From the IMG/VR virus record IMGVR_UViG_3300033993_000240: DNA of 20,000 nt. The stretch is one strand, 5' to 3'. Made by a program: the position numbers and the translations under genes. The notes under the pieces are model-generated. The model ran no database searches. It was not told where the DNA came from and saw only the letters and a program-made list of their open reading frames with translations. The DNA is from an uncultured virus (IMG/VR IMGVR_UViG_3300033993_000240). Lineage: Duplodnaviria; Heunggongvirae; Uroviricota; Caudoviricetes. This document shows, one piece after another, positions 15,851 to 20,000 of this stretch. How positions within the stretch are numbered: the stretch's first letter is position 1; each line of letters begins with the position of its first letter.

Positions 15851-15999
15851 TTCAGACCCCTTTGCATCAGCTTCACCCAGCACCGAGCGCAATGCCACTT
15901 GGTGCGCACCTTGACACCACCAAGCGGATCAGCCTCACGGCTGCACACATCACAAACCTTGAGCTTGTGCATTCGATTCATTTGTTCTTCAACTGTCAT
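15847..15999 (-). CDS. 50-aa zinc-finger protein (CxxC...CxxC), not in ORF track
   Basis: MTVEEQMNRMHKLKVCDVCSREADPLGGVKVRTKWHCARCWVKLMQRGLK; ATGA overlaps at both ends. Confidence 0.65.
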   Translation of the reverse strand: MTVEEQMNRMHKLKVCDVCSREADPLGGVKVRTKWHCARCWVKLMQRGLK

Positions 16000-17585
16000 T
16001 CCCAGCTCCTTTTTATTACCCTAAAAAACTTTCCGTCCTTGCGATACTCGATCCACTCTGGTGGCGTGGCCATGTTCATGTTCTTAACCATGTCCTCCAG
16101 CGTCTTCACATTCAGACCACCAGGCACAATGCTGGCGCTGTTGGCGATACTCAGAAGCTGGCTCATTGCACGCTGGCCTGCATAGCCTTCATGCATGATC
16201 GGCAAATACTCGGTGATTGGCGTATCGCTCAGGCCACCGTAGTAAGTCACGGCCAGCATCTCGATGCCAGAGGCCTTGCTGATGTGCTTGCGCCATGTCC
16301 AGCTCGTCACTTCCAACTCTTGGCCATCCAGACCCATGATGTCGTCATTTCGCAACACCATCGATTTTTTTACTGGCTCAGGAAACTGCTCACCGCATGA
16401 AGGGCAAAGCATCACCGAAATGTGCACCAGCTCACCGCAGTGATCGCAAACCTTGACTGGTGCCTCGCCATTCCCATCGCCACCCTTCTTTGGTGGCTGC
16501 ACATTGGTGATCGGTCCATGCGACTCGACCACACCAGCAAAGTCGAGAACCAAGCAATGATCGGTGTGGCTCTTTACCCTCATGCCACGGCCTGCCATCT
16601 GCACATAAAGGCTGGCGCTCATGGTCGGACGCAACATCACCACCAGATCGATGTCTGGATAGTCAAACCCTGTGGTCAACACATTGGCATTGGTGAGCGC
16701 ACGCACACGGCCAGACTTGAAGTCGGCCAACATGCGCTCGCGTTCTTTTTTTGGTGTTTCGCCAGTCACGCATTCAGCGGTCACACCTTGCTGGCGCAGG
16801 ACTTCGGCCACATGCTCGGCATGCTTCACGCCAGCACAGAAAAACAGCCATGCTTTGCGTTCACCGGCCAAGCCCATGACCTCATGGACCACAGCCTGAT
16901 TCTTGTCGTCGGTATCCACTGCGGCCTGCAATTCGGACTCAATGAACTCGCCACCGCGCTTATTCACGCCAGTCACATCCAGCTTGGCCTTGGTGACCTT
17001 GGAGCGCAGCGTAGCCAAATATCCCTTGAACACCAGCTCCTCGATGCTGACAGGCGTGAGTAGATCGTCAAAGAGCGCAGGCTTGTCGGTGATCAAGCCA
17101 TGCCCCAAGCGGTAAGGTGTGGCGGTCAGGCCAATCACACGCAAGTGCGGATTGATGGCCTTCAACTCGCCAAGCAGTTTGCGATAGCCACCCTCGTCCT
17201 TGTGGTTGACTAAGTGGCACTCATCGATGATCACTAGATCAATGTGGCCAAGCTCACGCGCCTTGGTGCGCACCGACTGGATGCCAGCAAAGGTGATCGG
17301 CTCGCTCAAGTCTTTCTGGCCAATGCTGGCGCTGTAGATGCCCATCGGTGCACCAGGCCAATGCTGGCGCATCTTCTCGGCATTCTGCTCAATCAGCTCC
17401 TTGACATGGGTCAGCATGAGCACCCGAGTCTCTGGCCAGTTTTGCAGGGCATCCTTGCACAGCGCAGCCACAATGTGCGACTTGCCTGAGCCGGTCGGCA
17501 GCACCAAGCATGGATTGCCTTGGTTGCCAGCCTCAAACCATCGGTACAGCTCGTCGATGGTGCGCTGTTGGTAGTCACGGAGCAT
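15996..17585 (-). CDS. Superfamily 2 helicase (RadD/YejH-like) with C-terminal zinc ribbon
   Basis: LRDYQ, LPTGSGKS, DECH, GLTATP, LTTGFD, QMAGRGMR; CDHC...CPSC. Confidence 0.93.
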   Translation of the reverse strand: MLRDYQQRTIDELYRWFEAGNQGNPCLVLPTGSGKSHIVAALCKDALQNWPETRVLMLTHVKELIEQNAEKMRQHWPGAPMGIYSASIGQKDLSEPITFAGIQSVRTKARELGHIDLVIIDECHLVNHKDEGGYRKLLGELKAINPHLRVIGLTATPYRLGHGLITDKPALFDDLLTPVSIEELVFKGYLATLRSKVTKAKLDVTGVNKRGGEFIESELQAAVDTDDKNQAVVHEVMGLAGERKAWLFFCAGVKHAEHVAEVLRQQGVTAECVTGETPKKERERMLADFKSGRVRALTNANVLTTGFDYPDIDLVVMLRPTMSASLYVQMAGRGMRVKSHTDHCLVLDFAGVVESHGPITNVQPPKKGGDGNGEAPVKVCDHCGELVHISVMLCPSCGEQFPEPVKKSMVLRNDDIMGLDGQELEVTSWTWRKHISKASGIEMLAVTYYGGLSDTPITEYLPIMHEGYAGQRAMSQLLSIANSASIVPGGLNVKTLEDMVKNMNMATPPEWIEYRKDGKFFRVIKRSWE

Positions 17586-18418
17586 TTAAAAGTCTCCAGA
17601 CTGTTGCTGCCACTTTTGGAACTTGTCCGTTGCCAATGGCTTTAAGTCGGTCCACTCTTGCGGCCACCCCATCAGCCACTCGACCCACGTTGGGTTCAGC
17701 GGCCCACCAGCCTGTGCCGCTAGGGGGATTTCGTTCCTCTTGTACTCCGAGGGATTTCCACCGTCTTTGTGCATTCTGGCCACTGGTGTTGGCCACAGTC
17801 TCGGATTGTTCACTTGGTCCACCAGTCTGATCTGGATGGGCTGGCCATTCTTTCGATGATTCTGGCCTTGTTTGAGTAGGCCAGAGGTCCCCCCCCCCCC
17901 CCGTGTCTGGAGTGCGCCACAATCCACGCTCTGTCCCTCTGATGCGGTGCGCCAACATCGACTGCTCCCATAACAGTCCATCGCGTGTCATACCCGAGAC
18001 TGGAAAGGTCGCCAAGGACTCGTCCGAGTCCTCGATGAATGAGCATTGGGCTGTTTTCCACGAATACGAATCTGGGTCGAACTTCGCTAACCACCCGCGC
18101 CATGTGGTACCACATTGAGGACTGCTCTCCATCGAGTCCTGCGCCTCGGCCTGCGATGGAAATGTCCGTACAGGGAAAGCCTCCCGAAACAACGTCAACA
18201 ATTCCTCGCCACGGTTGTCCGTCAAAGGTTTGAACGTCATCCCAAATCGGGAAAGGCGGGAGAACTCCGTCATTTTGTCTGGCGACAAGTACGCAAGCTG
18301 CGTAAGGTTCCCACTCGACTGCACAGACGGTTCGCCATCCGAGCAAATGCCCCCCAAGTATTCCTCCACCAGCGCCTGCGAATAAAGCCAGCTCATTTAA
18401 TTCTCCTTGTTTGTTCAT
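17575..18418 (-). CDS. C5 cytosine DNA methyltransferase, catalytic chain; frameshifted at G14 in this sequence
   Basis: Motif I FAGAGG, IV GFPC, VI ENS, VIII QRDR in ORF 18418-17810; motif X RLKAIGNGQVP lies in another frame after the G tract; removing one G gives a continuous 280-aa ORF. Confidence 0.85.
17586..18396 (-). CDS. Overlapping alternative-frame methyltransferase chain (WPTP segment + motif IX); frameshifted at the same G14
   Basis: Own AAGGAG RBS (18408-18403) 6 nt before ATG 18396; with one G removed reads into LWPTP...LNPTWVEWLMGWP and ends TAA 17586 adjacent to helicase ATG (269 aa). Confidence 0.75.
17889..17902 (-). repeat. G14 homopolymer (C14 on +)
   Basis: Counted directly: gaggt-C14-gtgt; the longest homopolymer I saw in the window. 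Confidence 0.95.
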
Positions 18419-19440
18419 CCCACAATCCTTCCACCAAAGTCCTTGCGCATCTCAGCAATCAAAGGATCACCGCTGGCGCAGGCATCAGAATTGGCCAGCA
18501 GCTCCTTGCTACCCCAAACACCTTCCTGCTCAGGATCGCCATTGGCCAGATTCACTCCATTGATCTCATATACAGCTGTGAACTCGTCTGGACCATTCTT
18601 GCGCTGCCAAGGCACCAGATCAGGGTGCAGGACATGCGACTCGCAACCAGTGCGCTGGGAATCCAAAGGAATCTCAGCATCCCACTTGGCGCAGTGCCAA
18701 GTCGAGTCAGGCATCGCTGTGGCCAAAGCGCAGGTGCGGCAGTTCACATGCTTGGTGGTCTTGGACTGGTGGCAGAACTCATGGGCATCACAAAACTTGC
18801 ACTGATACCAGCTCGCATCTGAGCTGATCGGCTCAGGCATGCGGTCACTCAAAGCAATGCGCTTGCCACGAACAATGGCCTTGTGCGCCACATCTTTGTC
18901 GAACTTTACGCGCTCTGTGTGAATGCGGTCATCATCCTTGCAGACAGCCAAGTACAGCGCACGATCAATGTCGGTGCCGGCCATGTAGACCTGCATCTGC
19001 ACAAAGTGCTCAGGCTTGGACTTCTCCACGCCATTCTTCTCCAGATCATCAAACGACTTTTTGGAGTGTGTCTTGAACTCGGCAATGTGCTTGGACTTGG
19101 GCGCTTCTGGCACACCTTTGTCGATGATGGCATCCAGCGATCCAGACACATGGCAGCCAAAGTCGACACGGTGCTGGGCAGACACCTTGCGCACATCAAT
19201 GCCAATGGCACGCAGATCGCTGATGATGTTGGCCTCCTCTTGGTGGCCACGACGAAACAGGCGCAGAATTCGACCAGGGAAGCTCGGCTGCACAGCCCAG
19301 CGGAAAGACAGCCACAGCCACCTATCACACACATGGCCAAGCGTACTGGCTCCAAGGTGTGGGCGCGGAACCTCGGCAATGGCCTCATGGTGCTTGTCAA
19401 TTAGCGCCTGAATGTTATGCTCTGACTCGGGAATCTTCAT
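18415..19440 (-). CDS. PD-(D/E)XK exonuclease, Cas4-like
   Basis: HLGAS..GHVCDR, GSLDA, AEFKT, QMQVYM, CKFCDAHEFC (split Cys cluster); AAGGAG RBS. Confidence 0.85.
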   Translation of the reverse strand: MKIPESEHNIQALIDKHHEAIAEVPRPHLGASTLGHVCDRWLWLSFRWAVQPSFPGRILRLFRRGHQEEANIISDLRAIGIDVRKVSAQHRVDFGCHVSGSLDAIIDKGVPEAPKSKHIAEFKTHSKKSFDDLEKNGVEKSKPEHFVQMQVYMAGTDIDRALYLAVCKDDDRIHTERVKFDKDVAHKAIVRGKRIALSDRMPEPISSDASWYQCKFCDAHEFCHQSKTTKHVNCRTCALATAMPDSTWHCAKWDAEIPLDSQRTGCESHVLHPDLVPWQRKNGPDEFTAVYEINGVNLANGDPEQEGVWGSKELLANSDACASGDPLIAEMRKDFGGRIVG

Positions 19441-19469
19441 GTGGTTCTCCTTTGTAGTTGCTACTTTAT

Positions 19470-19520
19470 GCCCAGGCTTCGGGTCGGGGGTTCCTAGCCG
19501 GCCTGGGCTTTTCTTTTCTT
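19470..19520 (+). terminator. Stem-loop with T tract oriented antisense to the local genes
   Basis: GCCCAGGC (19470-19477)/GCCTGGGC (19501-19508) followed by TTTTCTTTTCTT on +. Confidence 0.55.
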
Positions 19521-20000
19521 ACTTCTTAGCCCAAGGCGGTGCAGCCTTGGCAGTCGCAGTCTGAGCAGCCTCAGCCTGCTTCACAAAGGGCGGCACGTTG
19601 GCAGCTGGCGCTGCACTGCCAGACACAGACTTGAAGCCCTTGACCTCATTGCTTGCACCGTACTGAGCGTCCTCTTTGACCTCCAACTTGATGGCGATCT
19701 GGCCACCAATCAACTGGTCGGTGTCGGTCACTTTGGCCAAGCCAATGGCACGCATGATGTCACCCAGCTGCTGGCGACCGATCTCCTCAGCCTTGGGATT
19801 GGCGTTCTTGATGTTCAGGTTGCCAAAAACAACACGACCTTGGTGGCTCGGGCCAGTGATGTCATAACGCAGCTTGATGTACTGGCCATTGCCAGCCTTG
19901 GTTGCCTTCAACTCAGACTGAGAGATGGTGGCGGTGTACCAGCCAGCAGGCAGAGGCTCAAAGTTGCCATTGCCTTGGGGCAGTTCGTTGACGTTGAATT
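19519..20000 (-). CDS. DUF669-like single-stranded DNA-binding protein (5' end outside window)
   Basis: Frame stays open to the window edge (FNVNELPQGNGNFEPLPAGWYTATI...); GRVVFGNLN, NEVKGFK and C-terminal PPWAKK. Confidence 0.82.
   Translation of the reverse strand, partial: FNVNELPQGNGNFEPLPAGWYTATISQSELKATKAGNGQYIKLRYDITGPSHQGRVVFGNLNIKNANPKAEEIGRQQLGDIMRAIGLAKVTDTDQLIGGQIAIKLEVKEDAQYGASNEVKGFKSVSGSAAPAANVPPFVKQAEAAQTATAKAAPPWAKK

Follow-up and report, generated by a model that had tools for sequence, protein, structure and literature searches.

A phage C5 methyltransferase locus with two nearly co-extensive reading frames and a shared, length-variable poly-G tract

We analysed a 20,000-nucleotide (nt) window from an uncultured virus of the Caudoviricetes (IMG/VR record IMGVR_UViG_3300033993_000240), in which a two-frame C5 DNA methyltransferase locus lies on the minus strand at 17575..18418. 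We found that two open reading frames (ORFs), which we call alpha and beta, are nearly co-extensive over this locus, and that their dual coding is real and a trait of the family rather than a product of chance. Both frames cross a run of 14 G (17889..17902; C14 on the plus strand), and the length of this tract differs among close relatives. The explanation that we favour, and regard as probable, is that the locus encodes a heterodimeric phage C5 methylase from the two ORFs, that the slippage-prone tract shifts both of them, and that the window carries an OFF allele, G14.

Two open frames in one methyltransferase gene

As given in the window, frame A (alpha) runs from 18418 to 17810 and encodes 202 amino acids (aa), ending in the G14 register at a TGA (17810..17812), and frame B (beta) runs from 18396 to 17575 (273 aa) through the tract into the frame that carries motif X, ending in ...RVDRLKAIGNGQVP. 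Upstream of the tract, alpha occupies 17903..18418, and beta, in the +1 frame relative to alpha, occupies 17903..18396, a stretch of 164 codons (MSWLYSQALVEEY...GLWRTPDT) that overprints the alpha catalytic domain and is stop-free in relatives. The tract itself encodes Gly4 in both frames. Downstream, the beta frame (17586..17888) holds a WPTP module resembling a target recognition domain (TRD), followed by a motif IX-like segment, and the alpha frame (17575..17888) holds a poorly conserved linker, then WW..EPNVGRVADGVAARVD and motif X. In the G14 register the latter is fused to B, and the downstream beta frame is cut off from B and can be reached only via a third-frame ATG at 17981. These ORFs are exactly as the initial annotation had read them, side by side into G14 with the motif X and IX-like frames beyond. 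The products it predicted for a G13 tract, 280 and 269 aa, are encoded by a natural allele (contig L008), which we use as the restored architecture.

Two full-length ORFs one base apart are present in four phage records (an uncultured Caudoviricetes, Salmonella phage S9-5, Acinetobacter phage ABMM1 and Ralstonia phage Gerry), where alpha is annotated in three and beta in one. Through beta we found 80 viral loci: both ORFs are complete with the standard start offset in 60 and with a different offset in one (L058), in 12 the frames break at the tract, with an additional deletion in one of these (L025), and 7 are cut by contig ends or carry 5' lesions. Dereplication below 90% nt identity left 43 loci, and the beta frame is stop-free in all 43 of them over 229-311 codons, compared to a mean of 5.25 stops expected when alpha synonymous codons are permuted (P of zero stops: median 0.0005, maximum 0.0375). 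The +2 frame of the same loci has 15.4 stops, and the reciprocal test gave 8.95 expected stops in the alpha frame with 0 observed. A second search, made through alpha alone to remove ascertainment via beta, returned 80 viral loci, 8 of which could not be assessed. In 62 of the other 72, alpha ends in motif X and beta in motif IX; the frames are shifted exactly at the tract in 10, and at none of these 72 loci is the beta frame closed for any reason other than the tract. When we examined 27 loci in bacterial genomes or metagenome-assembled genomes (MAGs), 18 were complete with both frames open, 3 were cut by a contig end but open so far, 1 had an interrupted alpha, 1 was a partial match only, 1 (L093, G11) was shifted at the tract and 3 were shifted at a second G run. 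Beta itself matches no Pfam or NCBIfam family, and the best match of a beta profile among PDB sequences was an unrelated protein (E = 0.27). There are at least 7417 beta-related protein clusters, all unnamed or 'hypothetical' and none with a Pfam domain; PHROGs places beta in phrog_1008, 'DNA methyltransferase'.

The two frames also share a start arrangement. All 43 dereplicated loci have the context [ATG]TGA followed directly by ATGAG[CT]TGG, so that the beta ATG is immediately preceded by a stop and a single ribosome-binding region lies ahead of both starts, which are 4 nt apart. The distance from the alpha start to the beta start is 4 nt in most relatives and 22 nt in the window clade, where the alpha ATG is at 18416-18418, the beta ATG is at 18394-18396 and a Shine-Dalgarno-like hexamer, AAGGAG (18403..18408), sits 6 nt before the beta ATG within alpha codons 4-6, a position from which it may serve beta.

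From codon alignments of the 43 loci, we found that constraint passes from one frame to the other along the gene. In the first 150 alpha codons, variability is highest at alpha position 3 (0.22-0.46) and alpha amino-acid diversity is 0.07-0.30, while beta changes mainly at its second position and has a diversity of 0.27-0.52. From motif VIII to the lead-in of motif X, alpha position 1, which is beta position 3, becomes the most variable and alpha amino-acid diversity rises to as much as 0.8; in the last 25 alpha codons the alpha pattern is seen again. The tract follows motif VIII closely, at the changeover of constraint from alpha to beta, and in the 150 nt after it, the invariant sites at beta positions 1, 2 and 3 in 26 contigs number 33/50, 41/50 and 17/50. 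The conserved recognition-type modules (GLW.TP, WPTP.A) sit in beta, and the stretch of alpha from motif VIII to X is its least conserved part. Because constraint flips between the frames in this way, each chain is half functional and half a shadow of the other. The N-terminal sequence of beta is dictated by alpha; it seems that this part of beta must stay open and is otherwise free in sequence. As a probe for protein-level constraint on the beta N-terminus, we compared alpha third positions with the neighbouring helicase gene; they are less diverse (Pi of 0.108 vs 0.267), but this comparison involves only 6 contigs and all three codon positions are lower.

The division of motifs between the frames is that of a split C5 methyltransferase. 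Upstream of the tract, frame A matches PF00145 (E = 2.6e-30, with 1.3e-30 as a second figure) with residues 11-170 aligned to profile positions 5-162 of 324, and thus holds only the half of the enzyme with motifs I-VIII. The alpha profile also matches M.HhaI residues 16-179 (E = 1.9e-18). All of the motifs of the C5 catalytic half, I (FxGxGG), IV (PC), VI (ENV/ENS) and VIII (QxRxR), are present, as FAGAGGG (~18362-18382), GFPC (18170-18181), ENSP (18047-18058) and QRDRAWIV (17918-17941); we take these names to follow the usual C5-methyltransferase nomenclature. Motifs IX and X are not on one polypeptide with I-VIII: X is in alpha only in the G13 register, and in every relative the IX-like segment is read in the +1 frame. 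We assign motif IX to LNPTWVEWLMGWPQEWTDL (17643-17699) from its resemblance to the consensus of that motif and its predicted packing on motif X. The same segment is dual-coded, with motif IX in one frame and, in the other, the conserved EPNVGRVADGVAARVD lead-in (17650-17697) to motif X, RLKAIGNGQVP (17617-17649).

To the alignments we can add structure models. The alpha model has an M.HhaI-like core, with low confidence (predicted local distance difference test score, pLDDT, <50) at residues 168-258, and its top Foldseek matches are M.HhaI and M.HaeIII. When alpha was modelled with beta residues 150-269, the interface score ipSAE was 0.89, 0.89 and 0.88, compared to 0.02 for the best control; the mark for this score is reached by 116 of 157 solved complexes and by 2 of 215 mismatched pairs. 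The partner has a pLDDT of 60-62 in these models and contacts agree between runs at 60% or more. The predicted contacts join beta 200-209 and 226-254 (the WPTP module and motif IX) to alpha 10-19, 36-46, 146-155 and 230-262 (motifs I, VIII and X), which is the arrangement of a single-chain C5 methyltransferase. The model lends support to a putative binding of alpha and beta to each other. Together with the 43 stop-free beta frames, it is in favour of the two-chain, dual-frame design that the initial annotation had put forward.

Length variation of the poly-G tract

A G run as long as that in the window is not expected by chance; none was found in 200 dinucleotide shuffles, with a mean of 0.03 matches of a 10-mer. 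Using a flank pattern with a variable gap, we first recovered four IMG/VR contigs; the pattern had no match in a separate set of metagenome contigs. Three of them are 97.4-97.8% identical to the window over about 1 kb. L007 has G12, with A fused to the motif IX frame (276 aa) and B truncated (194 aa); L008 has G13, with alpha of 280 aa and beta of 269 aa; L010 has G14 and the same products as the window. The fusions and truncations that had been predicted for G12 and G14 from the window sequence are thus present in natural alleles. The fourth contig, L009, also has G14 and, except for a deletion of 59 nt, matches the window with 100% identity.

When we searched without regard to register, requiring only the conserved upstream flank and at least 9 G, we obtained 58 viral contigs, with tract lengths of 10 (2 contigs), 11 (11), 12 (13), 13 (15), 14 (12), 15 (4) and 17 (1). 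Register could be assessed in 50; of the other eight, seven end within 83 nt past the tract and one has a deletion. Of the 50, 15 are ON, 20 are in the +1 register, where A stops and B joins motif X, and 15 are in the -1 register, where A joins motif IX and B stops. The IX and X frames downstream of the tract are intact in all 50, and A and B are intact upstream in 51 of the 53 contigs with a full upstream flank. In the window strain group, whose flanks are identical, we found G12 in two contigs, G13 in one and G14 in three, in addition to the window itself, so that all three registers occur within one strain group that is at least 97.4% identical. Another strain, again with identical flanks, has G11 in four contigs. 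The registers of these close relatives bear out two earlier proposals, that tract length is polymorphic among them and that one tract moves both chains together.

The uninterrupted run is confined to one clade. In four more distant relatives (L032, L034, L055 and L070) the beta peptide at this site is the same, TPDTG(A/T)GGTSGLLKQG, but its codons are mixed, which indicates that the homopolymer is a derived trait of the clade that has it, where flanks are 80-99% identical. Mixed Gly codons in homologues had been named beforehand as a finding that would refute phase variation; they occur only outside the tract clade, and inside it the run is kept. In a clean set of 26 contigs, from which we left out four contigs whose tract edge has a base substitution, contigs cut by their ends and duplicates, all 26 have G at each of the four beta third positions within the run, compared to 17/50 invariant neighbouring third positions (p ~0.013).

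Two side observations concern G runs and lesions at this locus. The contig with the 59-nt deletion (L009, also recorded as G001, L005 and L006) is 100% identical to window positions 15900-19993 except that it lacks 18327-18385 in the motif I region, with 2 nt of microhomology at the junction. Since it combines G14 with loss of motif I, it is an OFF allele with a second, irreversible lesion. In other clades, a second run of G9-G11 is found in the AG.GAG region of alpha, about 250-280 nt past the beta ATG and just after motif IV (L070, L109, L112, L114, L115, L116, L137 and L161). In L114-L116 the frames are shifted at this second run, suggesting that poly-G tracts may have had more than one origin in this gene family.

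Possible roles of the tract

In the explanation that we favour, alpha (frame 0) would supply motifs I-VIII, a poorly conserved linker and motif X, and beta (frame +1) would supply about 165 overprinted N-terminal residues followed by the conserved WPTP-type recognition module and motif IX, the last of which is predicted to pack on alpha motifs X and I. The two chains would then form the active enzyme. Slippage by one G in either direction during DNA replication would move both ORFs at once; because a single tract lies in both, a single mutation would deprive alpha of motif X and beta of its recognition/IX part, and further slippage could restore both chains. The locus has sequence features of simple-sequence repeat (SSR) contingency genes: the repeat is uninterrupted, lies within the ORFs and varies in length across registers, and coding capacity is kept on both sides of it in OFF alleles, which implies reversibility. 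That OFF alleles are intact apart from the tract across diverged strains further implies frequent return to a selected state. Switching would be frequent and reversible within populations and ON progeny would be methylated, and the switch may be a form of bet-hedging, in which unmethylated DNA is exposed to restriction and methylated DNA to methyl-dependent restriction. The initial annotation had suggested this purpose, a hedge against both restriction enzymes and methyl-dependent nucleases, and we find it reasonable.

Several of our results weigh against this explanation. Beta alone folds poorly in AlphaFold2 (mean pLDDT 46.7, predicted template modelling score (pTM) 0.22, with the upstream part mostly below 50), and alpha alone folds only moderately (pLDDT 52.4, pTM 0.55). 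Because the predicted complex has the arrangement of a single-chain enzyme, its score may stem from resemblance to solved single-chain C5 methyltransferases, where IX is packed against X. The purity of the tract is only modestly above expectation, as the p value of about 0.013 indicates. The registers, at 15:20:15, are near uniform without a clear ON excess, which is also compatible with RNA-level read-through or with a gene that is neutral and dispensable. A second lesion is present in three of the 58 contigs (L236, which is the G001 contig described above, L223 and L226), and at this site most family members lack a tract. Finally, each sequencing run shows a single allele, and these are contigs, which cannot show minority alleles.

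Some of these points lead to the possible, if doubtful, alternative that the tract is a real hypermutable hotspot and no adaptive switch: the methylase would often be dispensable, the registers would drift and OFF copies would be decaying. The near-uniform registers (15 ON of 50, with 20 and 15 in the other two) are what drift would give, both of the upstream second lesions, G001 among them, are in contigs of the +1 register, and most relatives manage without a tract. However, another lesion is known in only 2 of 35 OFF contigs (5 of the 35 lack the full upstream flank and cannot be checked there), and the IX and X frames downstream are intact in 35/35. For OFF frames to be intact at 80-99% flank identity, recurrent return to a selected state is required, and the uninterrupted run has been kept although relatives tolerate mixed codons in its place.

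We consider it quite unlikely that slippage occurs at the RNA level instead, as transcriptional slippage or ribosomal frameshifting. All registers would then be made from any allele, 'OFF' alleles would still yield some alpha and beta, and DNA length modulo 3 would be nearly neutral. RNA polymerase does slip on long homopolymers, and near-uniform registers with intact flanking frames, as we observed, are what this alternative predicts. On the other hand, such slippage is less efficient on G/C runs than on A/T runs, and relatives without the tract express the pair without any such device. A related proposal, which we also hold to be improbable, is that the tract is a three-state switch in which the OFF product sets have residual, altered or regulatory activity, or in which RNA-level slippage makes all of the sets. 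G13 would give the alpha and beta heterodimer; G12 and G15 would give a single chain in the canonical order of motifs I-VIII, recognition module and IX, with X on a separate frame; and G11 and G14 would give a bare catalytic half and a B-X fusion, and the third-frame ATG at 17981 would give access to the recognition/IX part. If true, this would explain registers that are nearly equal with all frames intact.

It is very unlikely that the G14 of the window is a sequencing or assembly error of a true G13, which had earlier been thought equally plausible. Contigs at the tract do show trouble: 7 of 58 (L207, L211, L214, L220, L224, L233 and L248) end 1-83 nt past it, some with garbled sequence, and contigs of one sequencing run, X3, break there (between window positions 17887 and 17931), which suggests assembly trouble or mixed lengths at the tract. 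In contrast, G14 is spanned without gap or mismatch by contigs of three runs, X1, X2 and X4 (depths of 55, 12.8 and 24.3), of which X1 is possibly the source run and X2 and X4 are from other studies, and the IMG/VR contigs L009 and L010 also have G14. Other lengths are reproducible elsewhere, such as G11 in four contigs, and G13 is found in just 15 of the 58. Given the gap-free contigs and the reproducible lengths in other strains, we conclude that the window G14 is a genuine allele and unlikely to be a sequencing error.

Scarcely credible, lastly, is that the beta frame is no gene, being open by chance or through alpha codon constraint, or that a single chain is made via two programmed frameshifts: beta does have an N-terminus dictated by alpha, no confident fold and no Pfam or NCBIfam family, but it is stop-free in 43/43 loci against 5.25 stops expected, its position 3 is the most variable downstream of the tract, its start context with a stop directly before the ATG is shared by 43/43, its predicted complex with alpha scores 0.89 vs 0.02, and a single chain made by frameshifting would have no need to keep the 164 upstream codons of B open.

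Related systems and setting of the locus

The closest published relative of this locus, judged by analogy, is M.EcoHK31I, an alpha/beta C5 methyltransferase of E. coli. In the available description of that enzyme, two polypeptides are needed and beta is encoded wholly in an alternative frame of the alpha gene (PMC2836561). This supports the parallel that had been drawn when the locus was first read: compared by description, both systems have a second polypeptide in an alternative frame inside the alpha gene, and in both it carries motif IX. There are also differences, as far as the described features of M.EcoHK31I go. Beta here almost matches alpha in length (269 vs 280 codons), with its start 4-22 nt beyond that of alpha, whereas M.EcoHK31I beta is a short nested ORF; the recognition-type modules here are in beta, whereas the M.EcoHK31I alpha is said to hold the TRD (PMC2836561); and the gene here is phage-borne, belongs to a replication operon, has no nuclease partner that we could see in the window and contains a poly-G tract.

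A second group of relatives are the Paenibacillus larvae phages, in which a second ORF likewise lies in another frame inside a C5 methyltransferase gene (gp62/gp63 in phage BN12). The BN12 second ORF is distantly related to beta (tblastn, 25% identity over residues 56-251). Unlike beta here, that of BN12 (L118) starts 202 nt inside alpha rather than at the alpha start, which suggests that the first ~55 beta residues are not universal, and no poly-G was noted. GenBank annotates both overlapping ORFs of BN12 as DNA methyltransferase, and the available text on the P. larvae phages lists the gene pairs without comment (PMC6070908).

With respect to the tract, the locus resembles the phase-variable methyltransferases of bacteria, which in the accounts available to us have simple-sequence repeats in mod and restriction-modification (R-M) genes of Helicobacter, Neisseria, Moraxella and Haemophilus. 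As in those genes, a repeat tract lies within an ORF, and length change by slippage would act as an on/off switch for the enzyme. The bacterial genes, as these accounts describe them, are chromosomal, mostly encode N6-adenine enzymes of Type III or Type I/II and have one ORF per tract; in contrast, here the gene is in a phage genome, the enzyme is of the C5 type and one tract serves two overlapping ORFs, with three distinct product sets. In phages, homopolymer slippage has been proposed as bet-hedging against host defence by Gomez, Barrick and Waters, whose cases, in the accessible part of the preprint, are T2 agt and T4 rIIA with SSRs of at least 6 bases (bioRxiv 10.1101/2025.10.21.683753). 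The same text cites polyG tracts in Campylobacter phage receptor-binding genes (Sorensen et al. 2021) and a polyG tract in the methylase gene of Bordetella phage BPP-1 (Liu et al. 2004). Unlike the phage cases described there, the tract here is 10-17 G long and lies in a dual-coded C5 methylase. We considered BPP-1 as a precedent and set it aside: its bpm is annotated as an adenine methylase, and the reference record has no run of at least 9 G.

In a literature search with limited coverage of subscription journals, we found no paper on co-extensive dual coding of phage C5 methylases; in the same coverage there was none on a poly-G tract that shifts both chains of a methylase or on a phage poly-G methylase switch. 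The overlap amounts to about 270 codons on the same strand, kept across thousands of phage and prophage genes, and to our knowledge few conserved dual-coding regions of DNA viruses are longer. Of the two ORFs, annotation pipelines call just one. Chains that are half functional and half shadow offer a natural test bed for the evolution of overprinted genes. If the tract is a switch, the small set of phage cases described would gain an epigenetic contingency locus encoded by a phage, and with a cultured relative, phage bet-hedging between restriction and methyl-dependent defence would be directly testable.

The locus is part of a replication module, between a gene for a Cas4-domain exonuclease (18415-19440) and a helicase gene (15996-17585), and the plus strand of the window carries head, DNA-ejection, tail-spike, holin and endolysin genes, from which we take the window to be phage DNA. 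Coupling to both neighbours is tight. At 18415-18418 the exonuclease stop overlaps the alpha start as ATGA, and at 17575-17588 the beta stop TAA (17586-17588) is followed at once by the helicase ATG (17583-17585), with the alpha-frame stop TGA (17575-17577) falling inside the helicase gene by 8 nt. Reading from the third-frame ATG at 17981 (MDCYGSS...) runs into the tract and continues in the IX frame when the tract is G14 and in the X frame when it is G12. We saw no Shine-Dalgarno-like sequence before this ATG, and in relatives without the tract the third frame is open from the same point.

The X2 and X4 contigs also join the helicase start to the exonuclease end (17585 to 18410), leaving out the 824-nt methylase cassette. 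With only 26 letters on its shorter side, the join is too short to establish variants lacking the cassette, and it hints only weakly at relatives that have no gene, or another gene, at this place. Among genome collections, the closest relative is L093 (87% alpha identity, G11), on a 33 kb contig in a freshwater Burkholderiaceae MAG. Other bacterial relatives are in Ramlibacter, Comamonadaceae, Rhodoferax, Janthinobacterium and Pusillimonas, and the 21 sequencing runs with matching contigs, none of them recorded as RNA, are lake or freshwater metagenomes. These observations hint at a freshwater betaproteobacterium as the host.

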